From contig OZ245049.1 of assembly GCA_965224465.1 (NCBI GenBank), positions 600,001 to 632,000 on the forward strand: 32,000 bases of DNA. Direction: 5' to 3'. Below, one piece after another: positions 1 to 28,451 of the stretch; position 1 is the stretch's first letter; each line of letters starts with the position of its first letter. The DNA comes from Flavobacteriaceae bacterium (lineage in GTDB: Bacteria; Bacteroidota; Bacteroidia; Flavobacteriales; Flavobacteriaceae). The notes beneath the pieces were generated by a model that saw only the letters and a program-made list of their open reading frames with translations, was not told the origin of the DNA and did no database searches. The translations under genes were made by a program, and so were the position numbers.

Positions 1-1
1 T

Positions 2-403
2 TTTTGTAAATGGGAAGTAAATAAATATTTAGCGCCTGTTCTTTTAAATGAAAATATTAATAGTAATGGGTATGAATTTAATGCTTTTATCTCTAAAAAA
101 GAGGATTTCCTATTATTTACAAAATACAATAAAAAAGGAGGACAAGGAAGTGGCGATTTATACATTTCAAAAAAAAATATTGAGGGAAAATGGCAAAAAT
201 CGATAAATTTAGACACACCCATTAATACAAAATATATGGAATATTGTCCTTTTTATGATGAGAAAAATGAAATCTTATATTTTACAAGTAAGAGACAAAA
301 TAGTTCGCCTAAAAAATTTAAAGATATTTCTGATTTTAAAAAATATATTGAAGAGAGCGAAAACGGGTTGAGTAAAATTTATATGATTTCTATAAAATTA
401 TAA
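2..403 (+). CDS. 3' part of a PD40/TolB-like beta-propeller repeat protein (5' end outside the window)
   Basis: Frame 2 is open from the window edge to TAA at 401-403. It is absent from the ORF track because it has no start. The translation ...GGQGSGDLYISKKNIEGKWQKSINLDTPINTKYMEYCPFYDEKNEILYFTSKRQ... fits the PD40 repeat pattern. Confidence 0.55.
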   Translation, partial: FCKWEVNKYLAPVLLNENINSNGYEFNAFISKKEDFLLFTKYNKKGGQGSGDLYISKKNIEGKWQKSINLDTPINTKYMEYCPFYDEKNEILYFTSKRQNSSPKKFKDISDFKKYIEESENGLSKIYMISIKL

Positions 404-424
404 TAGAAACTATAATAACAGGAT

Positions 425-692
425 GTTCGTGCGATGCATAGCGCCCATCATAAACATCCTGTTGACTATACCGGCTCAAAAGATGATGCTATAGGGATTG
501 TGTGACTTAATTAAGAGGCTATCGACAAAAACCTAAATAGGTACCACCTGTTTTTAGATACGGATACGCATTGGTCAGTAGTGTTTTGGCTTGCGTTTCC
601 CAGTACGTGGCTACGTTTGTTTATTTTCGGTTATTATTACATGCTTTTATTCGTTGTAACCAATAAGCAGCTGGGGCCTCTTCTGCTAAACA
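425..692 (+). repeat. Rep-B copy 1 (GC-richer ~270-nt segment beginning GTTCGTGCG)
   Basis: Sequence gttcgtgcgatgcatagcgcccatcataaacatcc...cccagtacgtggctacg. Repeated at +1220 and +2441. Its first ~75 nt recur inverted at 10152-10226. Confidence 0.8.
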
Positions 693-793
693 GATAGCCT
701 GTTTTGAGTTTTCCTATCTTATAGTCGTTCTATTTTTCAACAACGCTAGAATGCAAAATAAACTATTTATATCAGTTATTTTGGATTGTAATT
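693..793 (+). repeat. Rep-A partial copy (gene-proximal two thirds) ending TTGGATTGTAATT
   Basis: gatagcct...cgttctatttttcaacaacgctagaatgcaaaataaactatttatatcagttattttggattgtaatt aligns with the full copies at 9377-9537 and 21706-21862 (reverse complement). Confidence 0.85.
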
Positions 794-886
794 TTATTAG
801 GTTATGGTTCTCCAAAAACCACAGAGATATACACCAAGACCATCGAAATAAAAAAATAGTTGGACCGCTTGAAAATTTAAAAAAAT
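794..886 (+). pseudogene. Possible relic of the 3' end (box II region) of a tyrosine recombinase gene, frameshifted
   Basis: Translates as LLGYGSPKTTEIYTKTIEIKK* and, after a +1 shift in an A7 run, KIVGPLENL. This resembles the LLGHsSxKTTEIYTHV...KIxSPLDxL C-termini of Xer-like integrases. There is no upstream recombinase body. Confidence 0.4.
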
Positions 887-1009
887 TGAATACTTTTATA
901 AAAAAACAACAGACACCCCGGAACTATTATAGACATAACGGAAATAACGTCAAGTTTTGGAAGTTTATTGATGATATATGGGTGTTGAGCTTAATAAAAA
1001 ACAAAAAAA

Positions 1010-1629
1010 ATGGAAGTAAAAACAGGGTTCATATTAGTTGCGATTTTTTCAATACTTGCAGGAAGTTATGCTATTTATGCGTCATATAAAAACTCACACA
1101 AAAACTATTCTCAAAAAAATTAAAACATAGATTAGTTCAAAACATACTTGGAATAAATGGAGCAAGAGTCTTGTATGGATTTTTAGGATTGGGATTAATT
1201 TTGTTCGGTACTTTTATATTGTTTCAATTTTTTGTAACCCCCAAATTAGGTAATGAATATAATAATAAAACGAATCAATTTATCATTTCATCAAGAACAA
1301 TTAATAAAGAAGGATATACTTTAAATTCAAATATTATAACAAATTTAAATCAATTAGAATCAAGAATAAAATTTGGAGGAGAAGAACAATTAAATCAATA
1401 TGTGAAGATTAGTTTTAAGAATAATTATCTCGAAGAAATACCTCAAATAGTTTGGAAAATGAAAAACCTGACAACTATAGATTTAACATATAACAAAATT
1501 GTAAATTTAAACATTGAACAAATTTCCAAAATGGATAGTTTAAAAATAATTGTGTTAAAAAACAACCCTATTACAAAGGAAAATATTAATAAATTAAGGA
1601 AGAAAACAAGTATTGAAATACGATACTAA
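1010..1629 (+). pseudogene. Frameshifted copy of the LRR membrane protein gene (A7 tract at 1113-1119 versus A8 in the intact copy)
   Basis: The ATG at 1010 corresponds to the ATG at 2230. Reading stops at TAA 1120-1122 after ...KNYSQKN. The rest (ORF 1171-1629) is identical to the C-terminal 152 aa of the intact paralog but lies in another frame. Confidence 0.85.
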
Positions 1630-1644
1630 GCCTAATAACTAAGT

Positions 1645-1912
1645 GTTCGTGCGGTGCATAGCGCCCATCATAAACATCCTGTTGACTATACCGGCTCAAA
1701 AGATGATGCTATAGGGATTGTGTGACTTAATTAAGAGGCTATCGACAAAAACCTAAATAGGTACCACCTGTTTTTAGATACGGATACGCATTGGTCAGTA
1801 GTGTTTTGGCTTGCGTTTCCCAGTACGTGGCTACGTTTGTTTATTTTCGGTTATTATTACATGCTTTTATTCGTTGTAACCAATAAGCAGCTGGGGCCTC
1901 TTCTGCTAAACA
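1645..1912 (+). repeat. Rep-B copy 2
   Basis: Matches 425-692 except for a few substitutions in the first ~20 nt (gcgatgc versus gcggtgc). Confidence 0.8.
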
Positions 1913-2013
1913 GATAGCCTGTTTTGAGTTTTCCTATCTTATAGTCGTTCTATTTTTCAACAACGCTAGAATGCAAAATAAACTATTTATATCAGTTATT
2001 TTGGATTGTAATT
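1913..2013 (+). repeat. Rep-A partial copy
   Basis: Identical to 693-793 (tandem unit 2). Confidence 0.85.
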
Positions 2014-2106
2014 TTATTAGGTTATGGTTCTCCAAAAACCACAGAGATATACACCAAGACCATCGAAATAAAAAAATAGTTGGACCGCTTGAAAATTTAA
2101 AAAAAT
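2014..2106 (+). pseudogene. Possible tyrosine recombinase 3'-end relic (copy 2)
   Basis: Identical to 794-886. Confidence 0.4.
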
Positions 2107-2229
2107 TGAATACTTTTATAAAAAAACAACAGACACCCCGGAACTATTATAGACATAACGGAAATAACGTCAAGTTTTGGAAGTTTATTGATGATATATG
2201 GGTGTTGAGCTTAATAAAAAACAAAAAAA

Positions 2230-2850
2230 ATGGAAGTAAAAACAGGGTTCATATTAGTTGCGATTTTTTCAATACTTGCAGGAAGTTATGCTATTTATGC
2301 GTCATATAAAAACTCACACAAAAACTATTCTCAAAAAAAATTAAAACATAGATTAGTTCAAAACATACTTGGAATAAATGGAGCAAGAGTCTTGTATGGA
2401 TTTTTAGGATTGGGATTAATTTTGTTCGGTACTTTTATATTGTTTCAATTTTTTGTAACCCCCAAATTAGGTAATGAATATAATAATAAAACGAATCAAT
2501 TTATCATTTCATCAAGAACAATTAATAAAGAAGGATATACTTTAAATTCAAATATTATAACAAATTTAAATCAATTAGAATCAAGAATAAAATTTGGAGG
2601 AGAAGAACAATTAAATCAATATGTGAAGATTAGTTTTAAGAATAATTATCTCGAAGAAATACCTCAAATAGTTTGGAAAATGAAAAACCTGACAACTATA
2701 GATTTAACATATAACAAAATTGTAAATTTAAACATTGAACAAATTTCCAAAATGGATAGTTTAAAAATAATTGTGTTAAAAAACAACCCTATTACAAAGG
2801 AAAATATTAATAAATTAAGGAAGAAAACAAGTATTGAAATACGATACTAA
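2230..2850 (+). CDS. Small membrane-anchored leucine-rich-repeat (LRR) protein
   Basis: 206-aa ORF with two N-terminal hydrophobic helices (FILVAIFSILAGSYAIYA; LYGFLGLGLILFGTFILFQFF). C-terminal LRR units: LEEIPQIVWKMKNLTTIDLTYNKIVNLNIEQISKMDSLKIIVLKNNPIT. Confidence 0.8.
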   Translation: MEVKTGFILVAIFSILAGSYAIYASYKNSHKNYSQKKLKHRLVQNILGINGARVLYGFLGLGLILFGTFILFQFFVTPKLGNEYNNKTNQFIISSRTINKEGYTLNSNIITNLNQLESRIKFGGEEQLNQYVKISFKNNYLEEIPQIVWKMKNLTTIDLTYNKIVNLNIEQISKMDSLKIIVLKNNPITKENINKLRKKTSIEIRY

Positions 2851-2865
2851 GCCTAATAACTAAGT

Positions 2866-3134
2866 GTTCGTGCGGTGCGTAGCACCCAGCATAAACACCC
2901 TGATGACTATACCAGATCAAAAGATGATGCTATAGGGATTGTGTGACTTAATTAAGAGGCTATCGACAAAAACCTAAATAGGTACCACCTGTTTTTAGAT
3001 ACGGATACGCATTGGTCAGTAGTGTTTTGGCTTGCGTTTCCCATTACGTGGCTACGTTTGTTTATTTTCGGTTATTATTACATGCTTTTATTCGTTGTAA
3101 CCAATAAGCAGCTGGGGGCCTCTTCTGCTAAACA
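2866..3134 (+). repeat. Rep-B copy 3 (diverged in its first ~60 nt)
   Basis: gttcgtgcggtgcgtagcacccagcataaacaccctgatgactataccagatc..., then near-identical to copies 1 and 2, with one substitution (cccattacg) and one extra G. Confidence 0.8.
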
Positions 3135-3237
3135 GATAGCCTGTTTTGAGTTTTCCTATCTTATAGTCGTTCTATTTTTCAACAACGCTAGAATGCAAAA
3201 TAAACTATTTATATCAGTTATTTTGGATTGTAATTGG
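3135..3237 (+). repeat. Rep-A partial copy ending TTGGATTGTAATTGG
   Basis: Same as 693-793. The end matches the canonical Rep-A terminus. Confidence 0.85.
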
Positions 3238-3251
3238 TGTTAAGCCTTGCT

Positions 3252-3327
3252 TCTCCAAAAACCACAGAGATATACACTAAGACCCTCGAAATAAAAAAAT
3301 AGTTGGACCGCTTGAAAATTTAAAAAA
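3252..3327 (+). pseudogene. Possible tyrosine recombinase 3'-end relic (copy 3, more degraded)
   Basis: Translates as SPKTTEIYTKTLEIKK*, followed by ..GPLENL in the +1 frame. The LLGY part is replaced. Confidence 0.35.
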
Positions 3328-3480
3328 ATTGAATACTTTTATCAAAAAAACAACAGACACCCCGAACCTATTATAGACATAACGGAAATAACGTCAAGTT
3401 TTGGAAATTTATTAATGAGATATAGGGGTTAGGTGCAATTTAGCAAACTTGAAACACAAAAACTAAAGAAAATATATTAT

Positions 3481-4893
3481 ATGACAGTGACAACAAAAGA
3501 ATTTTGGGATAAATATATAAATGAAGACATTTTAGATATATTTGAAATAACCTACGATTTTTTTTCAAAAGAATTACCAAAAGAATTTATTGAAAATTAT
3601 GATATTGAAGAGGTAATATTAGAAACGAGAGGACATCATGAGACAGCAAAAAAATTTGATAATGTTATTAGATTTTCTAAATTACTTCAAAAAGAACAAC
3701 CAAAATTATATAAAGAAAATTTTCAATATTTTGATGATTTTTTAATTGATTATTATTGCTTCCATAAAGATTATAACAACGTTGAGGATTCATTCTCCAA
3801 CTTTATTTTAAATCCAACTCACAATTTTGACAAATATTTAATTTCTTTTAGAAAATTGCTTTTCTATGGATATACAGATATTTTGAATGCAGCAATAACT
3901 AAAAATTACAAAAAAGTAGAGGCTTCTGATAAGTTAATAGGAAATGCAGGACATGATTTAGCGTTAAGTAAATTTTACTTGACATTAGAGAAATTCCATT
4001 TAGATGATGATTTTAATACTAAAACTTTTCTAGCAAAACTTAACAAATACGACTTTGATTTTAATAACGAATTTCTTTCGGCAGTTGAAACAGGAATGCG
4101 TGAACAACTCTCAAAAGAAGATATTGTAAATAATTTTCTAAATGATAGGCAGAACTTTATTATAACTCTTGAAATATATTTTTTAAGGTATATGCAAGAA
4201 CGTAAAATCTCTTTTGCAATAAGTGGTAGAATTTGGGGTAAAATTTTGGCGTTTTGGGCTGAAAATAATGACAAAAAAAGATGTAGTACTAATGATTATT
4301 TTCAAGTGAAAGTTGATGAATTAGAAAAGTACCTTACAAGATTATCAGGAGATATGTTTATTGATAATAAATCAGAGATGATTGCCGTACTCTGGGGAAG
4401 TGTATATGTATATGATTTCCTTAAAGAAATAGAAATTATAAAACAGTATACTTTTGATAACTTTATTGAGATAACAAGAATATTAAAAGGAAAAGTGATA
4501 GGGCAATGTACAAGTGATTTGTGGAATTCAAATTTTGTTCACTTGTGGGAGAAACCCGATAGTATTTCAACAATTGAATTCATTGAAGAAGAAAAAATAT
4601 TTAAAAAAAGTATCCTTTTTACACCTCAGAAATTCACACGATTACAAAGCGAAATATCAAAAGAATTAGCGAATATAGGAGAATTCTCCACTCATATTAT
4701 TGAAGGAGGAAAAACTGATGAAAACAAATATAACACATCTCTATTAGATGATTTCTTTGATACAAATAAAGGCAACAACACGCACAAAGTAAATAGAATA
4801 CTTGAACCTATTAAGGTAGAGAAAAAGGTTGGAAGAAATGAACCTTGTCCATGTGGTAGTGGAAAGAAATATAAAAAATGTTGTATAAGATAA
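3481..4893 (+). CDS. SEC-C motif (SecA-type C-terminal metal-binding) domain protein, otherwise uncharacterised
   Basis: Long ORF; the track starts it at GTG 3433 and the first ATG is at 3481. The C-terminus ...[18 protein letters not shown] is the canonical SEC-C zinc-binding motif. Confidence 0.8.
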
Positions 4894-5469
4894 AAAAGCA
4901 GTTAATCGAGTAGACGGCTCTGACTGATACAGCCAGAGTGCGCCGCCTCTCACACCACCGTACATACGTGAGCATCTCCGTTCAGAACGTTACTCCTGTA
5001 CATAAGGGACTTGCACCCTCTAGATTAATTAACTACATATCCGTAGTTAAAAGACACCCATACTGGGCATACACAAAGCATAAAACAATAAGGGTTAAGT
5101 GCCAAACCAAAAATGGGTACATCTCAACAAAGTCCGCCAAATTTAAAATTTGACGGTTAATAGAAGAATAACGATAAAATTGTAAATTTGGCAAAGTACT
5201 AACCTATAAAGTCCATGTTTTTTAACCGATCTACGATTCTTTATACTAACGTTGAAATGCATTGAAAGACGAAAAAACTGCAATGAAAAGCATTTTTAAT
5301 GTCTTGTGATATCAGATTTTTTTTAAAGATATACAGGTAAACTTTTAGACTAAAAAAGCGGTTAACATTACGGTTAATACAAACAGTAATAGAGAGATAG
5401 ATAGTCACTAATTTTAAAACACAAGTAACGTTTTTATTTGTTAATCGTCTACAATACAAACTACCTTTT

Positions 5470-6165
5470 ATGACATTGAATTCAACAAAAAAAACAGCGA
5501 GAATTACAGGTGTATTATTTCTTATCGTAACTATTACACATATACTAGGAACAAGTATAATAGAAAACCTTGTTTATACACCAGATTACCTAACTAGCAT
5601 AGCGGCAAATAAACCCATGTGGATTACGGCTTTATTAATTATGTTTGTATGCTGTGCAGGAATTATAGGTATTGCAATTGCCGTTTTTCCAATTTTAAGA
5701 AAATACCATTTAGGTGTTGCATTGAGTTATTTGGGATTTAGAATGGTAGAATCTATTTTATTTATAATTACTGAAATTAAAACATCTTCCTTACTCACAC
5801 TAAGTGAACAATACAATAAGTCTGACATAACTTTAAAACCAATTTTCGAAACAATTGGAGCTACATTGCAAGAGTCTCGCACTTGGAGTTTTGAAATTGG
5901 AATGCTGTTTTTCTGTACTGCTGCATTTATGTTTTATTTTGCTTTTTATAAATCAAAGTTACTCCCTCGATTTTTATCTATTTGGGGGATTGTAGGAGCT
6001 ATATTGGCATTTGTAGCTACCTTGTTTAGATTCTATGAAATAGAAATTCCGGGACTTGGAATTGTATTAAATCTTCCTATTGCAACTAATGAAATCTTCT
6101 TGTCGTTTTGGTTAATTTTTAAAGGATTTAATTTAACACCAAATACATCAAATAATTCAGCCTAA
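5470..6165 (+). CDS. Multi-pass membrane protein, DUF4386-like
   Basis: 231-aa ORF with about 6 hydrophobic helices. The N-terminal ...KKTARITGVLFLIVTITHILG pattern is typical of DUF4386 proteins. The family name comes from recall, not a search. Confidence 0.7.
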   Translation: MTLNSTKKTARITGVLFLIVTITHILGTSIIENLVYTPDYLTSIAANKPMWITALLIMFVCCAGIIGIAIAVFPILRKYHLGVALSYLGFRMVESILFIITEIKTSSLLTLSEQYNKSDITLKPIFETIGATLQESRTWSFEIGMLFFCTAAFMFYFAFYKSKLLPRFLSIWGIVGAILAFVATLFRFYEIEIPGLGIVLNLPIATNEIFLSFWLIFKGFNLTPNTSNNSA

Positions 6166-6476
6166 CTTTGTTTTATGATCAGTTCAATTAACTGACACGG
6201 AAGAGGTTGATGGGATAAACACGTCGCCTACAAAACATAAGACCAATACAAGTTTGTTGTTTACATAAAAGCGCTATATATTTAACAAAGACCACCAACA
6301 CGAAGTATCACCAAAGGTAATACGTTAAAGATGGTTTTAAAGAAACAAAATAAAACAAAATAAAAAGCTTTCGCTAATTGCAAGCTATAAAGTCCGTACT
6401 TAGAAATTTACATTGTACCTAGCTAGACGTAGTGCAACAAATAGAACATCCGTACCAACATTAAAATTGAAATAAA

Positions 6477-6971
6477 TTGAGAATACTTAATATACATCAA
6501 CGAACATTGAATCAACCAAAAAGTAAAGTAACGGAATTACTAAAAACGTTATCAACTAAAAACGATAGAATTTGGCCAAAAGAAAAATGGCCAGAAATGA
6601 AATTCAAAAACGGAATTCAAGTTGGAGCGAAAGGTGGACACGGACCCATAAGATACTCGGTAGAAAAATACAATCCGAATGAAATAATTCAATTTAGGTT
6701 TTCAAAACCAAATGGATTTAACGGAATTCATAAGTTCGAGATAAAGGAATTGGATAAAGAAAAGACAGAAATAAAGCACACAATTGATATGAATACTACT
6801 GGAAAAGGAACATTAATATGGACTTTTGCAATACGTTCCTTACACAACGCTTTAATTGAAGACGGATTTGACAAACTTGAAAACAATTTCTCGGAGAACC
6901 AAAAATCAACTCCTTGGAATATGTGGGTTAAATTTCTCAGAAAGCAGATTGCAAAACAAAGAAGAACGTAA
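6477..6971 (+). CDS. SRPBCC (START/polyketide-cyclase-like) family protein
   Basis: 164-aa ORF with a TTG start. The motif block RIWPKEKWPEMKF...VGAKGGHGPIRYSVEKYNPNEIIQFRF..PNGFNGIHKFE is typical of a widespread SRPBCC subfamily. Confidence 0.7.
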   Translation: MRILNIHQRTLNQPKSKVTELLKTLSTKNDRIWPKEKWPEMKFKNGIQVGAKGGHGPIRYSVEKYNPNEIIQFRFSKPNGFNGIHKFEIKELDKEKTEIKHTIDMNTTGKGTLIWTFAIRSLHNALIEDGFDKLENNFSENQKSTPWNMWVKFLRKQIAKQRRT

Positions 6972-7042
6972 AATAAACCATTTATATCGGTTATTTTAGA
7001 TTTTAGTTGGTATTCTATCGGTCATTTCGGACTGTAATTGGC
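6968..7042 (+). repeat. Rep-A fragment, rearranged (gene-proximal arm with an internal duplication)
   Basis: gtaaaataaaccatttatatcggttattttagatt...atcggtcatttcggactgtaattggc. It overlaps the stop codon of the SRPBCC gene. Confidence 0.6.
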
Positions 7043-9376: not shown

Positions 9377-9537
9377 ACCAAATACATTTCCAAGTGACAG
9401 TTTATAAATGGAATTATTTTTTGTTTTAGATAGGCAAAAAATGAATGGATAGCCTTAGCTATCGTTCTGTTTCTCAACAATGCTAGAACGTAAAACAAAC
9501 CATTTACAGAGTCATTTTGGATTGTAATTGGCATTAT
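9377..9537 (+). repeat. Rep-A full-length copy
   Basis: caccaaatacatttccaagtgacag...ggatagccttagctatcgttctgtttctcaacaatgctagaacg...cattttggattgtaattggcattatt. Internal hairpins are GATAGC-cTTA-GCTATC and an imperfect CGTTCTg...cTAGAACG (7 bp and perfect in copy 21706-21862). Confidence 0.9.
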
Positions 9538-9993: not shown

Positions 9994-10150
9994 ATCAACT
10001 AAATTTCCAAGTGACAATTTAGAAATGGAATTATTTTTTATTTTAGCTAGGTAAAAAAATCTAAGGATAGCCTTCTATCGTTCTGTTTTTTAACAACGCT
10101 AGAACGTAAAACAAACTATTTATATCGATCGTTTAGGATTTAAATTACAA
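9994..10150 (+). repeat. Rep-A full-length copy
   Basis: aaatttccaagtgacaatttagaaatggaattattttttattttagctaggtaaaaaaatctaaggatagcc...aacgctagaacgtaaaacaaactatttatatcgatcgtttaggatttaaattacaag. Confidence 0.9.
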
Positions 10151-10151
10151 G

Positions 10152-10226
10152 TCCCCTACTAACATCTTTTTGAGCCAGCATCGACTACCGTATTTTCATG
10201 CTTGGCGCTACCATTACACGAACGCT
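10152..10226 (-). repeat. Rep-B 5' fragment, inverted
   Basis: The reverse complement gttcgtgtaatggtagcgccaagcatgaaaatacggtagtcgatgctggctcaaaaagatgttagtagggga aligns with gttcgtgcgatgcatagcgcccatcataaacatcctgttgactataccggctcaaaagatgatgctataggga (425-497). Confidence 0.65.
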
Positions 10227-10259: not shown

Positions 10260-11318
10260 TTACATATATTTCTTAGTTATATAAGAAGAGGTCATGACTG
10301 CGAGTAATGCTCCATAATTTAGATTAAATCTCACCTCATCTCCTACCTTTAATTCTTTGTTTTCACAATCAATGATAACATGATCACTGGTTGCTCCAAG
10401 AATTTCAATATCTAATATAGGAGTCATTCCTGAGACTAAAACATCTTGCAATCCAATACCTAATATTGCTCTTCTAATTAAACCTCGATTTTTAAATTTC
10501 GGTATATTTCCAAATGCATCTTTATGAATCGTTCCGTAAGGTACAGATGGTTTTATTTTTGATTCGATAACCTCTGTAACTAGTATAAATGCGTCTGTAA
10601 ACAACTCAGGAATAGGTTTACTGCACAGTGTTTCGCAACCCATAAATACAGATTCTCCTATTCGTAAATTATTGATTTCCCCAACATCCTTGGTAGACAT
10701 AAACCAATTGTAATTAGCTGAATTGCCACCGGAGACTACTTCTAATCTAAGGTTAAATTTCTCTCGGATATCTTTGACAATTAAAGATAATTGTTCCATT
10801 TTTTCATCATTAGGCTCGACTCCTCCAAAACAAGTTAAATTTGTTCCAATACCTATGATTTCAATCCCTTGCATTGCTATTATTTCCTTAACGGCATCTT
10901 CTATATCCGACGGCATTATTCCTTCCCTTAAATCACCAAGTTCAACCATCAATATAATTTTATGTATCCTATTATATTTTCTGGCATATTTAGATAATTC
11001 TTTGATCACAGTAATTTCAGAATTGAGACTAATGTCTACATACTTTACTACTAATTCCGTTTGACTTAATGGAGGCGTTCTTAATAAAACTAATTGAGAA
11101 TGTATTTTAGCATTATATATTTTTATAAGATTAGTTATTCTTGAATCGGCAAGTGTTTTTATTCCACTTTCTATTAAAACTTTGGATATTTCAATAGCTC
11201 CACTAACTACTTTTGTGCTACACATTATATCGATTCCTTTTGAACGGTAAAGGTTCTTTAAAACGCTTGCATTATGTGCAATTTTATCAAGGTTAATTTC
11301 TATTCTTGGGGTAATCAT
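10260..11318 (-). CDS. PLP-dependent amino-acid racemase of the alanine/ornithine racemase (YhfX/Orr-like) family
   Basis: 352-aa ORF with N-terminal alanine-racemase TIM-barrel signatures (INLDKIAHNASVL...STKVV with the candidate PLP lysine; ILMVELGDLREG). Its ATG overlaps the stop of the upstream DUF1611 gene (ATGA). Confidence 0.75.
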   Translation of the reverse strand: MITPRIEINLDKIAHNASVLKNLYRSKGIDIMCSTKVVSGAIEISKVLIESGIKTLADSRITNLIKIYNAKIHSQLVLLRTPPLSQTELVVKYVDISLNSEITVIKELSKYARKYNRIHKIILMVELGDLREGIMPSDIEDAVKEIIAMQGIEIIGIGTNLTCFGGVEPNDEKMEQLSLIVKDIREKFNLRLEVVSGGNSANYNWFMSTKDVGEINNLRIGESVFMGCETLCSKPIPELFTDAFILVTEVIESKIKPSVPYGTIHKDAFGNIPKFKNRGLIRRAILGIGLQDVLVSGMTPILDIEILGATSDHVIIDCENKELKVGDEVRFNLNYGALLAVMTSSYITKKYM

Positions 11319-12394
11319 ATAACACAGCCTTCTTTTTGAAGTGTTGGAAATACCTCAACTATTTTTTCAACCAATTTATCGGTTCCATATTTTAAAACAT
11401 CCGTAGTTGGTAATGCATATTTACTTTCATATGCTACTATAGTATTTTCAAGTTCTTGGTCTGTCATATCTTCATGATTAAGTGTAATGGCAATTACTTT
11501 TGATTTTGAAAACAATTCATTCAGCTTAATTTCACTTTCTAATGTTGGCATTGGGTTGTTAGGATAATCACAGTGATATTTTCTTTTGGGTGGATGTTGC
11601 ATAATAATAGCATTAGGCATTGCCCCTCTAAGAATTGCACTTGACGATGTAAACGCTGGATGACTCAATGCTCCCTGACCTTCAACTATAATTATATCTG
11701 GCTGTTCTGTAGCAACTGCATTTAAAATTGCATTTTCAACTTCTCCCGTGGCAAAACCAGAAGTTAGAACATCTAAAGCAATACCATATTTTGCACCTTG
11801 GAGTAATCCTGTTTGTCCAGTAGTAACAAAAACTGTTTTTAAACCTTGTTTTTTCAAAGATTCAACTAGTAATCGGGCAGTTGTTCTTTTCCCTACGGCA
11901 CAATCTGTTCCTGCTACAACTATTACTGGGGTTTTGATTTCTGAAATACGTCCCGTAAATATATGGAGCTTATCTCTTGGTGGAGCTTTCCTAATATCAT
12001 AAATTCGGACACCATATTCAGTTGCTTTTTGAATAAATTCATCGTCTTCAGTAAAATATTCTGGAAGACCATTTATAATATTCATCTTATTTTTAATAGC
12101 ACTTACAATTATCTGTCTTTGTTCTTTATTAAGATATGATGTTAGAGGTGCAATACCATAAATAAAATTTTCAGGAGCATCCTTCAACGTATTTAAAGCA
12201 GCTTCAATACTTTTAAATATTGGAATATGGTTCTTAATTCCATCAAGATACTCACCTGCATCCAATCCTGCTTTTGTACTATCTATAATGCCAACAATAT
12301 CATACTTTTCAGAATATCTAGCTAAACCATTAGCTACTTTTCCATCTATCTTTCCAAACTCATTTTCACTATAAACTAAAGATTTTTCTCTCAT
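11315..12394 (-). CDS. DUF1611 family protein (DgcN-like, P-loop-type GTDCAVGK motif)
   Basis: 359-aa ORF. GKVANGLARYSEKYDIVGIIDS...VVAGTDCAVGKRTT...IIVEGQGALSHPAF match my recollection of the conserved blocks of DUF1611. Confidence 0.7.
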   Translation of the reverse strand: MREKSLVYSENEFGKIDGKVANGLARYSEKYDIVGIIDSTKAGLDAGEYLDGIKNHIPIFKSIEAALNTLKDAPENFIYGIAPLTSYLNKEQRQIIVSAIKNKMNIINGLPEYFTEDDEFIQKATEYGVRIYDIRKAPPRDKLHIFTGRISEIKTPVIVVAGTDCAVGKRTTARLLVESLKKQGLKTVFVTTGQTGLLQGAKYGIALDVLTSGFATGEVENAILNAVATEQPDIIIVEGQGALSHPAFTSSSAILRGAMPNAIIMQHPPKRKYHCDYPNNPMPTLESEIKLNELFSKSKVIAITLNHEDMTDQELENTIVAYESKYALPTTDVLKYGTDKLVEKIVEVFPTLQKEGCVI

Positions 12395-13134
12395 TTTTTA
12401 CTTTTATATTTTAATTTAATTAATGTCAATTACAAACCAACTAACGTTGAATTATTTCGCACATAACACAATGGTTAATAACAACAACTGAAGGGACCTA
12501 TTGATATTCGCTGATGTTAGGAATCAGTACCTTGATTTTATTATTCATTCTAATCTATATCTAAACATATATATTTAAAAAGAACTATAACACTAGAAAA
12601 GAACCAATTAATCGAAGGTCAGCTCATTACAACATCTAATTCTATTTGATCTTTATTCAGAAATAAACGCAATCTAATTCAGACAGAGAAAAAAGACCTT
12701 TCATACAGATTATCAATAATTAACTTGATTCTGCGAAAAATAATTCAATCCATTACAATCAGTATAAACACTGCAAATTTATCCGCAACAGCTCCTTAGT
12801 TTTGTTACGAAATTTAATTTCTTTTCTTGTATTATGTTATTATATCCGAACGGATATTTGTATGATTAGTAGAGTAGTAAAAGTACTACCTTTTTAGTTA
12901 AATACTAAACTTAATTTTAAAAATTTAACTTTAGTTTCGCCACAAAAAACAGTTAACATAGCGTGCCTAGATCTAATAAAATTTCTTGTGATTAAAAGCC
13001 CTAATACAGAAATAGTTGCCCTTTATATTATAAATTTCAGATTCGTTTAATATTTCTTGATGTATCTATCTCGTATCTAATGTTCTCAAAATATATTTTA
13101 AAGAAACATGCAGTCTTATCTGTTTTTTTTGTAA

Positions 13135-13185: not shown

Positions 13186-13258
13186 CCAATTACAATCCAA
13201 AATAATCGATATAAATAGCTTATTTCTAAAACGTCACTAGGAAATGTATTTGGTATTA
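13186..13258 (-). repeat. Rep-A short form (two arms only, ~73 nt)
   Basis: ccaattacaatccaaaataatcgatataaatagcttatttctaaaacgtcactaggaaatgtatttggtatta has both conserved arms and lacks the central ~80 nt. Confidence 0.85.
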
Positions 13259-15141: not shown

Positions 15142-15236
15142 GAGTTTTTTTTATTCAAAGACCAAATTAATAGGCTTGGTGGGTTAATTAAATATAGTGG
15201 ATTCTTGACCCAAGAATCAACAGTTTCGCCCCAAGT

Positions 15237-15399
15237 GTACGAGCTATGCTTTTGAAAGACTATTTTCTATTTCGATAGCCTAGGAGAAGCAAGCCCCTCA
15301 ATAAGGATTTAACACCAATTACAATCCAAAACAACCGATATAAATAGTTTGTTTTACGTTCTCGTCTTGTTAAAAAGCAGAACGATAGAAGGCGCTATC
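15237..15399 (-). repeat. Rep-A partial copy plus conserved leader extension
   Basis: The core is caccaattacaatccaaaacaaccgatataaatagtttgttttacgttctcgtcttgttaaaaagcagaacgatagaaggcgctatc. The extension 15237-15312 is homologous to 16796-16852 and, with a ~33-nt deletion, to the leader at 794-886. Confidence 0.75.
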
Positions 15400-15441: not shown

Positions 15442-16488
15442 TTATTCATAAATCACATTGTCTAATTTCACTTCTTTAATATTTTTTAAACAACCTTTTA
15501 AGGAACTTAAATCACCTTTTAAATCATACCTTTTTCCATTTACTTTAACAATTACGCCTATTTTATCTAGGTTCCCAAGCTTCCTTATTTCATAAATTTC
15601 GTACGTGGCATTTTTATTTTCAAAGATTAGTCTATCTTCTTTTTTGTTGATTTTAAAATCGGGGTTCTTATAAACTGATTCTATTGGATACGAAAACTCA
15701 ACTGTTTGGTCAGACGCCATAAAAGTATAATTAAGTATCCTGTTGTTGATATTAAATACACTAACTTTCTTTTGGTTCTTAACAAGTTTAAATGAAAATA
15801 ATTCTGTAATACCTTCTTGCTGCAGGTCAATTGTTTTTTCTGTTTTTATACGCTTCTTATTCCCCTCCCACTCCGTTATGGTTCTAGTCAGAAAAGGAAA
15901 ATCATAAGCTTCTTCAATAACTAAAACAGGTGTAGGAATGTTGTCAATCACTTTAAATTCTGAAAACTGATGCCAACAACATCCACTTTTCGTCATGGTA
16001 TGAATCGTCTTTGTATCAGTATCTATTTGAAACATCCCACAGTATTGTTGAGCCAATTGAGTGAATGCAGGACTGTGCTTTAAACCATCTCCATTTTCAA
16101 GATATATTTGAAAAGAGGGCCCGTGATAACAACTGTATTGCCCATCCATTATCGCTAAATCCTTTTTACCATCAAAATTGAAATCCTCATAGATTAATAC
16201 ACTCTGCTCCCCGTATGGTAATTCTAAAACATTGGTCTTAACAGCTCCTTTTTTGTCTAGTTCAAAGATCAATTCATCAGCGTTAATTTCTATAATTTGT
16301 TTGTTCGTATTCGTTTTAATAATTGAAATTTTTCCTTTCTTAAAAACTTCATTTTCAAAGCCTTCTTCAATAGTTAAAATTCCCATATACTTTTCGGAGA
16401 ATCCTTTAATTTTATATTCAGTCTGACCAAATACATTGGTAGAAATAAATCCATTTAAAAGGAATAAAAATAATTTCATTTTTTGCAT
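15442..16488 (-). CDS. Hypothetical secreted protein with an FG-GAP/VCBS-like DFNFDGKKD motif (possibly XAC2610-type immunity-like)
   Basis: 348-aa ORF with a signal peptide (MKLFLFLLNGFISTNVFGQ; the start could be 16479). The motif is YEDFNFDGKKDLAIMDG. The family assignment is tentative and from memory. Confidence 0.6.
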   Translation of the reverse strand: MQKMKLFLFLLNGFISTNVFGQTEYKIKGFSEKYMGILTIEEGFENEVFKKGKISIIKTNTNKQIIEINADELIFELDKKGAVKTNVLELPYGEQSVLIYEDFNFDGKKDLAIMDGQYSCYHGPSFQIYLENGDGLKHSPAFTQLAQQYCGMFQIDTDTKTIHTMTKSGCCWHQFSEFKVIDNIPTPVLVIEEAYDFPFLTRTITEWEGNKKRIKTEKTIDLQQEGITELFSFKLVKNQKKVSVFNINNRILNYTFMASDQTVEFSYPIESVYKNPDFKINKKEDRLIFENKNATYEIYEIRKLGNLDKIGVIVKVNGKRYDLKGDLSSLKGCLKNIKEVKLDNVIYE

Positions 16489-16575
16489 TTTTATTTTTTC
16501 TTACAACTTTTTTTAAAGAAATTGCAAGATGGTTTAAGCATAACAACCTATTTACTAGAACTATACATCAACTAA

Positions 16576-16680
16576 AACCTAAAACAACCGATATAAATAG
16601 TTTATTTTTAAACCCTCACTTGGAAATTTAATTGGTATAACAAAAAATAATTCCATTTCTAAACCTACACTTAAAAATGT
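16576..16680 (-). repeat. Rep-A short form followed by an extra distal-arm copy
   Basis: aacctaaaacaaccgatataaatagtttatttttaaaccctcacttggaaatttaattggtataac, then aaaaaataattccatttctaaacctacacttaaaaatgt. Confidence 0.7.
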
Positions 16681-16795
16681 TTTTGCTAGTAGACAAATAT
16701 ACTGCTTTTATGCTTGTTTTTATTGTAAACATAAGAATCTAGCAAGATACGTAAACAGTCGTCCTTTAATAAAACCAACAGCTTCACTACAAAGG

Positions 16796-16960
16796 CACGA
16801 GGCATGCTTTAGAAATACTATTTTCTATCTTGAGACATCGCCTAGGGAAACTATAATTACAACCCAAAACGACCGATATAAATAGTTTATTTTACGCTCT
16901 AGCGTTGTTAAAGAACAGAACTACAGCTAAGGCTATACTTAGATTTTTGCCTAGCTAAAA
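16796..16960 (-). repeat. Rep-A copy (distal arm missing) plus leader extension
   Basis: cacgaggcatgctttagaaatactattttctatcttgagacatcgcctagggaaactataattacaacccaaaacgaccgatataaatagtttattttacgctctagcgttgttaaagaacagaactacagctaaggctatacttagatttttgcctagct. Confidence 0.8.
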
Positions 16961-17190
16961 AAAACTCAGTATCAAGTACTATTTATACGCAATTTGGTCA
17001 ATCTTAATACACAATTGACTCAAATACACATCACTAGAGTATAAAACAGTAGGACTCGCGTTTTTCTTATGCGTTATCTAACACATAAGAACATCCAATT
17101 TAGCGCTATAAAAACAGTCGCTTAAACTTGGGTGGATGTTTTTAAGGAGACATTGATGTATGGCAGTAAATACAAGTCTATTTTTAGTAC

Positions 17191-18871: not shown

Positions 18872-19016
18872 CAATTAAAATCCAAATCACAGATATAAAT
18901 AGTTTGTTTTACGTCCTATCGTTGTTAAAAAACAGAACTACAGCTAACTATCCTTAGATTTTCCGTCTAGCTAAAATAATTACATATCTAAACCATCACT
19001 TGGAAATATTTTTTGT
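18872..19016 (-). repeat. Rep-A full-length copy
   Basis: caattaaaatccaaatcacagatataaatagtttgttttacgtcctatcgttgttaaaaaacagaactacagctaactatccttagattttccgtctagctaaaataattacatatctaaaccatcacttggaaatatt. Confidence 0.85.
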
Positions 19017-21196: not shown

Positions 21197-21224
21197 ATAA
21201 TACCAATTACAATCCAAAATAACA
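21197..21224 (-). repeat. Rep-A terminal fragment
   Basis: ataataccaattacaatccaaaataaca; only the gene-proximal arm is present. Confidence 0.7.
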
Positions 21225-21705: not shown

Positions 21706-21862
21706 AATACCAATTACAATCCAAAATAACCGATATAAATAGTTTATTTTACGTTCTAGCGTTGTTGAAAAATAGAACGATAGCTAAGGCTATCCTTAGA
21801 TTTTCCGCCTAGCTAGAACAAAAAATAATTCTATTTCTAAACCGTCACTTGGAAATGTAGTT
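21706..21862 (-). repeat. Rep-A full-length copy (closest to consensus)
   Basis: aataccaattacaatccaaaataaccgatataaatagtttattttacgttctagcgttgttgaaaaatagaacgatagctaaggctatccttagattttccgcctagctagaacaaaaaataattctatttctaaaccgtcacttggaaatgtagttg. Confidence 0.9.
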
Positions 21863-22083
21863 GAAATAAGAGATTCATCAATATCTTTTTGAGTGATTTT
21901 CATTCTAATTTCGTTCGTTTTTTAATTTTTTATACAATCGTATCAATCCCGTAAAAATGTATTTCTACCACCTTAAGCCTCTCAACTAAAGGCAACAACA
22001 TTATAAATACAGGAAATATTTTATTTATTTAATCCTGAATAAACTCAGTGAATTATATTTTTTATCGAAACTAACATCAGAAT

Positions 22084-22647: not shown

Positions 22648-22867
22648 GCTTTATAAAATAAGTACGTATTCCTCTTATGTACAGAAAAGTAACGGTACAG
22701 AGCAGTGCGTGATGCTATTTAAAAATTATATATCTCTACAATATCTTTCAAATATATAAAAGTTAGGGCTACCTCACACGCATAATTTATTTTTTCTCAT
22801 GCATTCTAAAAAGTGTTATTTTTTAAATACCCGTTGAATAATGTCATACGTACGTTTATACCACACA

Positions 22868-22975
22868 ATCCAAAATAACCGATATAAATAGCTTGTTTTA
22901 GGTTCTAGCTAGAACAAAAAATAATTCTATTTCTAAACCGTTACTTGGAAATGTGTTTGGTATTATTTTTAAAAG
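22868..22975 (-). repeat. Rep-A copy with an internal deletion
   Basis: ataccacacaatccaaaataaccgatataaatagcttgttttaggttctagctagaacaaaaaataattctatttctaaaccgttacttggaaatgtgtttggtattat. The centre is collapsed between two TTCTAG/CTAGAA repeats. Confidence 0.85.
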
Positions 22976-23057: not shown

Positions 23058-23106
23058 ACACAAATTACAATCCAAAATAACGGTTTAGAAAAGTATTTGT
23101 ATTAGA
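23058..23106 (-). repeat. Rep-A minimal/degenerate copy
   Basis: acacaaattacaatccaaaataacggtttagaaaagtatttgtattag. Confidence 0.5.
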
Positions 23107-24795: not shown

Positions 24796-24853
24796 TACTG
24801 GAAATGATGTTATACCAATTTCTAAACCGTCACTTGAAAAAATATTTGGTACT
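24796..24853 (-). repeat. Rep-A distal-arm fragments (two in tandem)
   Basis: tactggaaatgatgttatacc followed by tttctaaaccgtcacttgaaaaaatatttggtact. Confidence 0.6.
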
Positions 24854-25429: not shown

Positions 25430-26546
25430 AATTCAAGTCACAAACGCAACTTTTAGTTAAATAATAATTGTTCCATTACAAATATAGGGTTTTGATATTT
25501 ATGTCTCTTCCTAGGTCTGTTATTTAATTTTGTTTCTACCTCTTTGATTCTTTGATCTGTTAGGTTTGTAAAGTCACTTCCTTTGGCAAAATATTGTCTA
25601 ATCAAACCATTTAAATTTTCGTTAGATCCTCTTTCCCAAGAGTGATATGGATGCGCAAAAAAGTAATCAATACATAAATTTTCTGCAACCTGCTCATGGC
25701 CTGCAAATTCTTTTCCATTATCAGCTGTTATAGTATGTAGATAAGGCTTCCAGTCTTCTAATATTTCATTGATAGCTTTAGTGACAACAACTGCTTCTTT
25801 AGAGCTTACTTTTTTCATTTTAAGCATTCCAGAAGCTCTATCATTTACGGTAAGTATGGCTTGATTATGGTTTTTACCTATGATTAAATCGACCTCTAAA
25901 TCTCCAAATCGATTTCTTTGTTCAACAACTTCAGGGCGTTGTTCTATACTAATACGATTCTTTATAACCCCTCTAGAATCCTTTGATGAGCCACGTTTTC
26001 TATATCTCCTTCCCTGTCTGCGAAGGTGTGTATGTAAATCACCATCATTCCTCTTGTCTTCCCTAATATGCTGATATATACGCTCAATAGACACCGTTTC
26101 TTTACCTTGTTTTTTTAGGACACCAACTACTTGCTCAGGACTATAATCGTCTCGCAATAACAACTCTATTGCTTGTTGAATATCTTCTGTAAAGCGTTTT
26201 CTTTTAGGCTTTTCTTTATGACGTTTAGCATACTTTTTTTGGGCTAATTCATGCTTGTAAACTCCATTTCTTTTGTCTGAATTACGCTTAATCTCTTTGC
26301 TAATAACAGACTTGTCTTTTCCTATAGCAGCTGCTATCTCAACCTGTTTATAACCTTGTTTTAACATGCAACAAATTGTGTATCTTTGCGCTTGGGTGAT
26401 GTGTTTCATACAACTTCTTTTTTCGAGATTTGAGACCGTAAGATACATATCCATCAAGACAAGAAAGGTAGGTTTTCCTACTTTTCTGTTTTGAAAATAT
26501 AACCATCATAGAATCAAATCGAAAAGTTGCGTTTATTAGTTGAATT
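25430..26546 (-). mobile_element. IS30-family insertion sequence (~1117 bp)
   Basis: Terminal inverted repeats AATTCAAGTCACAAACGCAACTTTT (25430-25454) and AATTCAACTAATAAACGCAACTTTT (reverse complement of 26522-26546) match at 22/25. A single transposase ORF fills the element. I could not identify a target-site duplication by eye. Confidence 0.85.
25453..26409 (-). CDS. IS30 family transposase
   Basis: An N-terminal HTH (ITQAQRYTICCMLKQGYKQVEIAAAIGKDKSVISKEIKRN) and a DDE core (...DLEVDLI...TITADNGKEF...HPYHSWERGSNENLNGLIRQY). The likely start is the ATG at 26409. Confidence 0.9.
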   Translation of the reverse strand: MKHITQAQRYTICCMLKQGYKQVEIAAAIGKDKSVISKEIKRNSDKRNGVYKHELAQKKYAKRHKEKPKRKRFTEDIQQAIELLLRDDYSPEQVVGVLKKQGKETVSIERIYQHIREDKRNDGDLHTHLRRQGRRYRKRGSSKDSRGVIKNRISIEQRPEVVEQRNRFGDLEVDLIIGKNHNQAILTVNDRASGMLKMKKVSSKEAVVVTKAINEILEDWKPYLHTITADNGKEFAGHEQVAENLCIDYFFAHPYHSWERGSNENLNGLIRQYFAKGSDFTNLTDQRIKEVETKLNNRPRKRHKYQNPIFVMEQLLFN

Positions 26547-26905
26547 TAAGATTGGTATATATTTTTTCCCAAATTAAACGTCCATCTTCTGTTTGTTGGC
26601 TCCATACTCCAGTAGGATCATTATTTTTATAATAGCAGGTTTCTATTAATTTTGTCCCCGTATTTGCTGCAAACAAATTAGCTACCCATTTACCTACTTT
26701 TAAACCCTGCTTATAAACCTCTATCCTTTTAAGCGTTCCTTTTTTACTATAGCTTTTCCATTCACCATCTTTTAAGCCATTTTTATAGTTAAAATCATCA
26801 CTAATTTCACCATTTGAATAGTAAGAAGTACTTTTCCCATTCGCCTTCCCATTTTTATTAAAAAAAATTACTTGTTCGTAAGCGTACGGTAAAGTACACC
26901 CTTGA

Positions 26906-28408
26906 TTATTTATCAACAGGCTTCCAATTTTGAGGCAGTAACTCCGAAAGTTTATTAGCCTTATGTTCTGGTAATCTATTAAGGACATCACATAGCCACG
27001 TATGTGGGTTTACGTTATTCTTTTTGCAAGTAGCAAAAAAGCTATAAAATAGAGCTATGTTTTGTGCGGACTCATGACTGCCAGCAAAGAGATAATTTTT
27101 TCTGCCAATAGCTAAAGGTCTTATGGCATTTTCTATATTATTGTTGTCTATTTCAAACCTGCCATCATCGATGTATAGTTTTAGGTTTTGCCATATTTTA
27201 AGAGTATAAGCAATTGCTTTTCCTATGGCACTTTTAGGCAGTACGTTTTTTCGCTCTTTTGTAAGATAAATTTCTATTCCGTCTAAAACAGGTGATGCAT
27301 GTTTTTCTCTATATGCTTTAGTTTGCTCAATAGTTAATTCTTGTTCTTTTATTTTACGTTCTATCTTGTATAGCTTTTGAATTTCCAACAAAACAACATC
27401 CGCTCTTTTAGGATCATTATCCAGCGCCTTCTCAAAATACCGCCTAGCATGAGCCATGCAACCTAAAAGAGTAATTTCTCCTTTTGTTGTTAAGTTTTGG
27501 TATGCAGCATACCCATCGGACTGTAGTGTCCCATTGAAATCTTTAAAAAACTCTTCTGGAACAACTTTTCCTCTCCCTTTATTGTATTCAAAAAGAACTA
27601 AATTTTTAACAGGATTTCGATACACCCACATATACCCTCTGTGTGTTGATTTTTTCTTGTCTTTATCTAAAACCTTTATAGGAGATTCGTCTGCTTGAAT
27701 ATAATTGGCATTTTCTAAAAACTGAGCCTTAAATGTATCGTATAAAGGAGCGATAAGCTCCGAACTTTTAGATACCCATCCTCCAATTGTTGATTTACTT
27801 ACTTTTAAATCTTGTCGTTTAAAAATTTGAATTAATCTGTAAAGTGGTAAATGGTCTACAAATTTTGAAATAAGTATAAAGGCCAATAAACTTGCTGATG
27901 CATTTCCTTTAGGTATCGGTAAGCTTGGTAATTCTGCTATAACAACGCCTTTTTCTTCCGGAAGTGCATATTTAGGTCTTACAATTCGTCTTACAAAAAC
28001 GGAAAGAGGCGTTATTTCTAAAAGTTCTGTAACTTCTTCTCCTATTTTTACAGCTCCTTCTTCTATGTGCTTAGGCTCTATAATCTCTTCTACTCGCGGA
28101 AAATGCGCAGGTATAGAAGAGCGAACAGGTTTTTTCTTTCCTTTCTTCTTTTGTTTTCTTTCGTAGATTACAATATGTTTTTTGTATGCCTCTTCTTTCT
28201 CAGCTATTATTTTTCCGAAAAGCGACAATTGATTTGTGTCAACAGGGATAAAACGTTCGCTTTTAGACCCGAAAACCATTCTTCTAAGCTGCTCGTATTG
28301 CTGCTTAATTTCAGCTAGTTCTTGAGCTGTTTTTTCAAGTTCAATCTTTAAAATTACCAGCTCTTTTTGTATGTCTATTGTATTGTTTTCCACACTATAA
28401 ATATACAA
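26906..28408 (-). CDS. tnpC: IS66 family transposase (TnpC)
   Basis: 500-aa ORF with an N-terminal leucine-zipper region and the FGSKSERF motif. The DDE domain blocks are IQADESPIKVL and LQSDGYAAY. Confidence 0.9.
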   Translation of the reverse strand: MYIYSVENNTIDIQKELVILKIELEKTAQELAEIKQQYEQLRRMVFGSKSERFIPVDTNQLSLFGKIIAEKEEAYKKHIVIYERKQKKKGKKKPVRSSIPAHFPRVEEIIEPKHIEEGAVKIGEEVTELLEITPLSVFVRRIVRPKYALPEEKGVVIAELPSLPIPKGNASASLLAFILISKFVDHLPLYRLIQIFKRQDLKVSKSTIGGWVSKSSELIAPLYDTFKAQFLENANYIQADESPIKVLDKDKKKSTHRGYMWVYRNPVKNLVLFEYNKGRGKVVPEEFFKDFNGTLQSDGYAAYQNLTTKGEITLLGCMAHARRYFEKALDNDPKRADVVLLEIQKLYKIERKIKEQELTIEQTKAYREKHASPVLDGIEIYLTKERKNVLPKSAIGKAIAYTLKIWQNLKLYIDDGRFEIDNNNIENAIRPLAIGRKNYLFAGSHESAQNIALFYSFFATCKKNNVNPHTWLCDVLNRLPEHKANKLSELLPQNWKPVDK

Positions 28409-28451
28409 AAAACAAGACTAAATAGCAGGTAAAACCTACAGTTTTATTGAA

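Follow-up and report, generated by a model that had tools for sequence, protein, structure and literature searches.

The window, that is, the whole 32-kb stretch of DNA that was analysed, is shown here to hold a putative integron-like gene-cassette array in a flavobacterium. A short element that recurs in front of its cassettes is, as judged from homology, a genuine remnant of an Xer/integron-type recombinase gene, namely of its final ~30 codons, and such a relic would place the window within a system that captures cassettes. Our favored explanation, which we regard as fairly likely, is that the decapitated head of such an array persists in the form of a repeated unit next to attI-type sites.

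Relics of a Recombinase Gene End

The following copies of the relic were located in the window.

794–886, plus strand: recombinase 3' relic, copy 1, recognized by translation, tblastn, and nucleotide alignment
2014–2106, plus strand: recombinase 3' relic, copy 2, same as copy 1 with no differences
3236–3329, plus strand: recombinase 3' relic, copy 3, which encodes VLSLASPKTTEIYTKTLEIKK with its stop at 3300–3302
15215–15316, minus strand: decayed relic and leader adjoining the right end of an E2 repeat at 15317 (the 15317 copy); reverse complement GGTGTTAAATCCTTATTGAGGGGCTTGCTTCTCC/TAGGCTATCGAAATAGAAAATAG...GAAACTGTT
16773–16851, minus strand: more decayed homologue of the preceding element (the 16852 copy), recognizable solely via that copy

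Copy 1 is equivalent to residues ~330–360 of a 368-aa recombinase. Its first frame reads LLGYGSPKTTEIYTKTIEIKK up to a TAG stop codon (857–859) directly 3' of an A7 run (850–856), and the +1 frame past this run reads KIVGPLENLKKL, the shifted tail of which, KIVGPLENL, ends at 886. The His of the LLGH motif is changed into Tyr in copies 1 and 2. The ORF of copy 3, located at 3237–3302, has lost the LLGY codons, and this copy is ~12 nt shorter at its 5' edge than the 15317 copy. The initial annotation had proposed two further-decayed copies, which were confirmed in part. The 15317 copy gave a 27-nt local alignment with copy 1 that was matched by 1 of 2000 shuffles, and it has GGTGTTAA...CTTGCTTCTCC in common with copy 3. 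The similarity of the 16852 copy to copy 3, the sole relic copy with which it was compared, was not significant (reached by 521 of 2000 shuffles), and it is linked to the relics through the 15317 copy alone, to which it exhibited clear homology (0 of 2000 shuffles).

The intact 368-aa recombinase of the related locus L005 (10159–11265, minus strand; related loci are given L numbers) was compared with the window using tblastn, which gave 84% identity over residues 330–348 at both 794–850 and 2014–2070 (E = 1.3e-4) and 74% identity at 3237–3293 (E = 0.006). These three relics were the sole credible matches, and a Pfam search of 20 ORFs likewise gave no recombinase body in the 32-kb window, in agreement with the earlier statement that none precedes the relic. 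A functional tyrosine recombinase was defined as having a core-binding domain in addition to a full catalytic domain (R-K-H-R-H/W-Y), and just the last ~30 codons of such a gene are left in the window. The box II segment with the catalytic tyrosine was defined by LLGH-x3-KTT-x-IYT containing the nucleophilic Tyr, together with homology to intact members. On these grounds the relic is classed as a tyrosine recombinase C-terminus, with 84% amino-acid identity to the L005 protein and 83.5% nucleotide identity to the gene of L011.

When the repaired relic peptide was searched against 5.8 billion proteins, two small Flavobacteriaceae ORFs were retrieved, namely MLGHASPKTTEIYTKTIEINNKKIVGPLENL (E = 9e-11) and ...VSMRHVQNMLGHASPKTTEIYTKTIDINNKKIKGPLENL (E = 4e-9). 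The latter is located in L004, where it forms the tail of a recombinase pseudogene; the remaining part of that gene (…YRPSYWLFEGQ…NPWTTVH) persists upstream of it, with a ~170-nt repeat dividing it. The reconstructed C-terminal half, used as a query, then gave 154 Phage_integrase proteins ending in …HTLRHSFATHCIENN…MLGHSSPKTTEIYTKTIEINNKTI.SPLD.L. The bare 32-aa relic peptide gave no recombinase match in Pfam, NCBIfam, or PDB (phmmer), yielding either nothing or a spurious lectin repeat; the significance of the relic hence rests on its close family and not on generic profiles, for which such a peptide is too short. Nucleotide alignments against intact recombinase genes also support the homology. 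Chance resemblance was ruled out by the protein retrieval, the tblastn matches, and the nucleotide identity, so that the resemblance to a tyrosine recombinase C-terminus noticed in the initial annotation is borne out.

An Intact Parental-Type Gene and Its Early Stop

An intact gene of the parental type was found in L011, a metagenome contig obtained with a degenerate DNA pattern for GPLENLKNLNT. Its 352-aa recombinase ends in …MLGHASPKTTEIYTKTIEIIKK and a stop codon, followed by an out-of-frame IVGPLENL and the same leader as in the window. Compared with unit 1 of the window, the nucleotide identity was 83.5% for the relic and 82.1% for the 100-nt leader, and fell to background level past the GTT that terminates the leader. 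A parental-type gene, ~83% identical in its 3' end and leader to the window leaders, thus exists, and it sits at the boundary (head) of a cassette array.

The recombinase of L011 (1844–2902, minus strand) does not possess the usual …NNK.I.SPLD.L tail, and the relic-only allele of L002 (2789–2920) keeps the long frame; the two tails differ by a 4-nt indel in an A/T-rich run. L011 and the window carry the same early stop, …IEIIKK, since their deletions relative to the L002 allele (4 and 7 nt, respectively) shift the frame by an equal amount. The frameshift, which had been read as a mark of decay, is therefore no evidence of it, because the same allele is present in the otherwise intact L011 gene. 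The A/T-rich run at the recombinase tail may be prone to slippage, with a possible effect on how active the enzyme is. Furthermore, a cbiA-like flank is common to L011 and the relic-only loci L002, L003, L009, and L010, indicating that the same chromosomal site exists both with and without the recombinase body.

The Repeated Unit and the Proposed Crossover Point

The relics are embedded in a larger repeated unit, the parts and neighbors of which are as follows.

428–986, plus strand: repeated unit ("pseudo-cassette") 1, consisting of E1, a 165-nt spacer, the E2 right half, the relic, and the leader
1648–2206, plus strand: repeated unit 2, 99.8% identical to unit 1
2869–3430, plus strand: repeated unit 3, 95% identical to units 1 and 2
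428–559, plus strand: E1, a conserved stretch that opens the unit (CGTGCGrTGCrTAGC...)
725–793, plus strand: E2 right half (...TTATTTTGGATTGTAATT), whose last base, 793, abuts the relic; likewise 1945–2013 and 3167–3235
887–986, plus strand: attI-like leader 3' of the relic, ending in the core TATATGGGTGTT (975–986)
2107–2206 and 3330–3430, plus strand: equivalent leaders of copies 2 and 3, the core of copy 3 being TATAGGGGTT (3421–3430)
987–1647, plus strand: LRR-protein cassette, copy 1, frameshifted with a stop after 37 codons
2207–2868, plus strand: second copy of the LRR-protein cassette, whose 206-aa ORF (2230–2850) is intact
3481–4893: SEC-C-motif protein cassette after unit 3

The three relic copies are not independent, as all of them lie within this 559–562-nt unit. 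GTT is present at both edges of unit 1 (425–427 and 984–986), unit 2 (1645–1647 and 2204–2206), and unit 3 (2866–2868 and 3428–3430). Together with their LRR cassettes, units 1 and 2 make up a tandem duplication of 1220 bp with 99.8% identity, in which the two cassettes differ by one A (A7 at 1110–1117 versus A8 at 2333–2340).

A conserved core, TATAC-N4-5-GTT, was detected 3' of the stop codon of the recombinase, and homology ended directly after its GTT in every comparison, ~50–165 nt past that codon among the loci checked. This break falls between 986 and 987 in the window, 127 nt 3' of the relic stop codon: unit 1 reads …TATATGGGTGTT followed by GAGC and unit 3 reads …TATAGGGGTT followed by AGGT, so that they diverge at 986/987 and 3430/3431, respectively. 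L009 and L002 share 99% identity up to the end of the leader and 45% directly after TATACGGGTGTT. The modules of L006 and L007 are 98.8% identical over 566 nt, with the edges …CGTT and TATACATATGTT, and the homology between heads a and b of L005 likewise ends at the core GTT. Six modules of L013 (Flavivirga jejuensis GCA_039539385.1, BAABDA010000050.1, 49936–70271) all end at TATACAATTGTT, after which different cassettes follow. An attI site next to the recombinase gene, with its crossover at GTT, is hence assigned from sequence breaks, as distinct from biochemical mapping, for the window, L009/L002, L006/L007, and the six L013 modules. Whereas the capture site had been suggested to overlap the recombinase gene's 3' end, these breaks, lying 3' of the stop codon, place it beside that end without overlap. 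TATAC-N4-5-GTT would provide a concrete, testable crossover point for rAID-like recombinase-headed arrays; for their recombination sites, just "conserved intergenic motifs" have been reported to date.

Related Arrays in Flavobacteriaceae

All recovered relatives bearing a taxon name belong to Flavobacteriaceae or Flavobacteriales. In L005, L008, and L011, the recombinase stands at the head of a series of small diverse genes that share its orientation, and a 5'-truncated copy occupies that place in L006/L007; the co-oriented array layout was also observed in L002, L005, L008, and L013. The cargo of the L013 array includes Colicin_Pyocin immunity and T6SS_Tdi1_C proteins, and LRR, SEC-C, MORN, and HEAT proteins occur in other loci. 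Most cassettes of L002, L005, L008, and L013 are divided by attC-like hairpins that contain no relic. These sites are imperfect hairpins with fold z-scores of −2.1 to −4.1. Cassettes in these four loci start directly after …GTT, and the first box of their end site is the reverse complement of their first 6 nt plus AAC (the R''-box rule), as in L002 (GTT followed by GGCAAC … GTTGCCAAC) and L013 (GTT followed by GTAGTG … CACTACAAC). Cassettes that follow the first-6-nt rule are listed with the positions of the first bases and of their counterpart.

L002: GGCAAC, 2988 to 3576
L004: GGCATT, 776 to 2251
L007: ATATCC, 10451 to 12829
L013: GTAGTG, 6310 to 6931; GTAGCA, 10383 to 10899; ATGCAT, 15759 to 16371

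The initial annotation regarded relics in front of successive cassettes as a signature of the array, and this pattern recurs in L013 and in L006/L007, which bears that view out for this array type. L013 carries six modules of truncated recombinase plus attI in one 15-kb array (94–98% identical), of which the four complete ones are ~475 nt long and 95–98% identical. Each comprises an unrelated 130-nt sequence followed by recombinase residues 273–366, the leader, and the terminal TATACAATTGTT. Their left edges are sharp, and a GTT is close by in just m19829 (…AACCGTT followed by GCACAGG, plus 55 nt) and m5794 (GGTGTT, plus 17 nt), the other four of the six having no GTT nearby. L006 and L007 represent the same truncated module at two loci of one genome, with GTT on both sides. 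An IS (DDE_Tnp_1) is inserted directly upstream of one L013 module. The two arrays of L005 are convergent; a recombinase stands at the head of each, of which one is intact (368 aa) and the other frameshifted, and cassettes of the first array are mirrored in the second. One L005 array contains two copies of a ~420-nt cassette that has no ORF (GTCTTGCATTGAG…), at 1335–1750 and 3828–4250.

In the window, the cassettes showed no perfect R'' boxes, the search yielding just AT-rich chance pairs, and no convincing attC hairpins (z = +0.3 to −1.8 for E1 and −0.3 for 6156–6270). The window sites may hence be fossil. E1 was also found in L004 (4432–4568, 81%), after a cassette gene, and at 10163–10223 of the window (minus strand); in both genomes this element (CGTGCGrTGCrTAGCrCC…GGCTCAAAAGATG…AGAGGCTATCGAC) sits after cassette stop codons, and the bases with which it opens are similar to an attC-like site of L002 (7845–7870) in its 5' half. 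E1 was tried as the attC hairpin of the preceding cassette, an idea that was downgraded since as DNA it folds no better than shuffled sequences; it may derive from an attC half-site, as a remnant. Whole Rep-A, the repeat named in the initial annotation, folds as RNA better than shuffles (z = −3.3). Rfam gave no known RNA family in the window at the gathering threshold or in 380–1020 at E up to 10, and no tRNA was found; Rep-A as a group II intron end or known ncRNA was dropped for want of an Rfam match. A search of plasmid DNA with the repeated unit gave no match.

A plain segmental duplication of a dead array head and its neighbors through unequal homologous recombination, with the internal relic and leader as junk that never had a role in capture, would account for the 1220-bp tandem and for window cassettes having no clear attC features. 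We consider it unlikely, because a different gene follows unit 3 (95% identical) and homology stops exactly at the GTT core. The same exact break recurs in L006/L007 and in the six L013 modules, and the cassette next to GTT obeys the R''-box rule for three of these six and for the L007 module.

The 5' Edge of the Relic and the E2 Repeat

The relic begins at residue ~330 in the window (at the E2 end), ~323 in L002, 273 in L013, 222 in L006/L007, and 172 in L014. Truncation of the 5' part with retention of the 3' end is the rule among the sampled loci (the window, the L002 lineage, E2-split L004, L006/L007, L013, and L014). The edge is identical among the copies of one genome, indicating that they descend from one already-truncated template and that the edge is not a recombination crossover. 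E2 is an imperfect palindrome of 75–170 nt that ends in ATACCAAATAC…GTAATTGGTAT (ATACCAAATACATTTCC…GGATTGTAATTGGTAT), with ~16 full or partial copies in both orientations in the window. In addition to those in the units, they are located as follows.

9379–9529 and 9995–10146, plus strand: E2 copies
13188–13252, 15317–15393, 16570–16680, 16855–16964, 18873–19007, 21712–21863, and 22865–22954, minus strand: E2 copies
6963–7008, 21205–21223, 23063–23081, and 24818–24848: E2 fragments

Their orientation is constant with respect to the genes, the GTAATTGG end facing the start of the next gene. Scanning the genome collection with the E2 motif gave one foreign copy, in L001 (6508–6671), which is intergenic between housekeeping genes of another flavobacterium. 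A further E2 copy is inserted in the L004 recombinase gene (361–527) in the opposite orientation. No Rfam match was obtained for E2, which may represent a MITE-like element or a recombination site of a second type. E2-derived sequence was also sought upstream of the L002 relic, whose edge lies ~7 codons further upstream, and was rejected as the alignment did not beat shuffles. An IS cluster is located at the far end of the repeat-rich region (25453–29138).

25453–26457, minus strand: IS30-like transposase (HTH_38 + rve)
26906–28408, minus strand: IS66 transposase
28452–28805 and 28881–29138: two small ORFs upstream of the IS66 transposase, possibly IS66 accessory genes (putative)

These edges bear on the idea that the site overlaps the gene 3' end, each incoming cassette bringing a replacement end that displaces the old one to a position before the older cassette. 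In the window, L006/L007, and L013, the relics do indeed immediately precede a cassette junction, and a circle excised between two GTTs would carry one relic module; in a weak form, as a long att homology that extends into the gene, the idea may hold. Taken literally, it is nevertheless improbable, as the homology break lies 3' of the stop codon by the distance given above and the relic 5' edge varies by genome, being set by an E2 end in the window. Moreover, relic-free hairpins divide most cassettes of L002, L005, L008, and L013, and no internal relics were found in the stretches at hand of L005 and L011, which possess an intact recombinase.

Still less probable, in our estimate, is that the gene end is functional itself and hence kept, as a micro-protein, a promoter, or recombinase-binding attI arms. 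The relic is an open ORF of 43 or 53 codons in L002/L003 and L004, all five nucleotide differences between L011 and L002 in shared codons are synonymous (alignment read by eye), and 3' ends are kept across many independent truncations. Against this, the window copies have a stop codon and the His-to-Tyr change in LLGH, copy 3 has lost its start, and the 15317 and 16852 copies are heavily decayed. The relic is conserved to the same degree as the flanking non-coding leader, in which no Bacteroidetes −7 motif (TAnnTTTG) was seen by eye.

Proposed Origin of the Repeated Unit

In the favored explanation, that of a decapitated head, the relic would be the remainder of the recombinase gene formerly situated at the head of an integron-like cassette array. 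The array would have been of a rAID-like type, its cassettes pointing the same way as the gene of this simple Xer/IntI-related tyrosine recombinase, and cassettes would have been inserted at an attI-like site ending in TATAC-N4-5-GTT, ~50–165 nt past the recombinase stop codon as in the loci checked. In the window genome, the recombinase body would have been lost up to the E2 end, leaving this end, the last ~30 codons, the leader, and GTT. The decapitated head, embedded in a 559-nt GTT-edged segment, would then have been copied within the array to give three good and two decayed copies, each providing one capture site with different cassettes next to it (the LRR gene twice and the SEC-C gene). 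The attI-bearing pseudo-cassettes may have multiplied through site-specific excision and re-insertion by a recombinase acting in trans; such an enzyme is assumed because the window contains no intact recombinase. The newest tandem duplication of unit plus LRR cassette presumably arose through unequal homologous exchange, and the window sites might still be active. The relic would hence be a hitch-hiker that marks attI-type sites, since it lies directly upstream of them and recombination does not occur inside it. As to how the unit was copied, the chances of a site-specific and a homologous route appear roughly even. The pair of units 1 and 2 with their LRR cassettes is equally explained by ordinary unequal homologous recombination, and the simple pseudo-cassette model fails to account for the L013 left edges without GTT.

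Comparison with Known Systems

The closest described system is rAID-1 of Bacteroidales, in which a XerD-like recombinase at the 5' end is followed by co-oriented, diverse low-GC genes with intergenic repeats "reminiscent of integrons" (Ross et al. 2019, 10.1101/471110; PMC12247911). A recombinase head, co-oriented short low-GC genes, intergenic repeats, and immunity-type cargo were all observed in the related loci. rAID-1 is defined by a recombinase with no less than 44% identity to B. fragilis BF9343_RS08045 and by at least 2 co-directional downstream genes with GC ≤41%. The gene layout and GC content agree with this definition, as the genes in positions 1–7000 of the window are co-oriented and this part has 29.7% GC. 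The occurrence differs, since rAID-1 hosts are Bacteroidales and those described here are Flavobacteriaceae. The array type thus resembles rAID by layout, recombinase identity aside. The rAID-1 papers describe neither recombinase 3' relics inside arrays nor the crossover point (10.1101/471110; PMC12247911).

The related arrays share with integrons a site beside the recombinase gene, crossover after GTT, ORF-less cassettes, and integrase-less arrays (CALIN/In0). As with integron attC sites, the cassette-end sites of the related loci are imperfect hairpins, whose 5' box consists of the cassette's first bases in reverse complement plus AAC. Integrons in which intI is co-oriented with the array exist. 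The parent recombinases contain the domains Phage_int_SAM_4 and Phage_integrase, and, unlike integron integrases, they scored 183–207 bits on the TIGR02249 model, below its 265-bit cut-off. They matched this model in two stretches, without the stretch that holds the IntI-specific insertion; in the short homologues P0082 and P0093, the second stretch resumes at model position ~238–240. Another difference is that attI and gene-end modules are repeated inside the array here, and we know of no attI-plus-gene-end repeat in classical integrons. In the literature searched, no description of recombinase-stump-plus-attI repeats inside arrays was found. Surveys with IntegronFinder reported almost no integrons in Bacteroidetes (PMC9024848).

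Islands that integrate at tRNA or other gene 3' ends are similar to the window in carrying a partial copy of a gene 3' end at the junction of the inserted DNA. In such islands, crossover takes place inside the duplicated end and the gene is restored, whereas crossover here is located past the stop codon. Unlike in these islands, the duplicated piece here has an arbitrary 5' edge resulting from an earlier truncation.

A "xerD/tnpF" gene directly upstream of tet(X3) (L015, NZ_CP041297.1, 22418–24439; many Acinetobacter plasmids) encodes a 221-aa, N-terminally truncated homologue. It exhibited 49% identity to the L011 recombinase over residues 112–337. Approximately 175 nt past xerD, TATAGCCACTTGTT is followed by ATGTGCC before the tet(X3) start, and CGGCTACTAAC is present after the tet(X3) stop. 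The adjacency of xerD and tet(X) is known, and its role was left open (PMC7473080). From this arrangement, xerD-tet(X3) looks like an escaped truncated head together with its first cassette. A broader view, which we put forward tentatively as a minority possibility, is that an IntI-independent integron-like system is widespread in Flavobacteriaceae. In it, a truncated recombinase end plus attI would be a mobile "insertion-site cassette" that provides many capture sites per array, and the xerD-tet(X3) segment of Acinetobacter plasmids would be an escaped head with its first cassette. If the link between xerD and tet(X) is true, it would explain how a gene for resistance to a last-resort antibiotic was packaged in a flavobacterial source.
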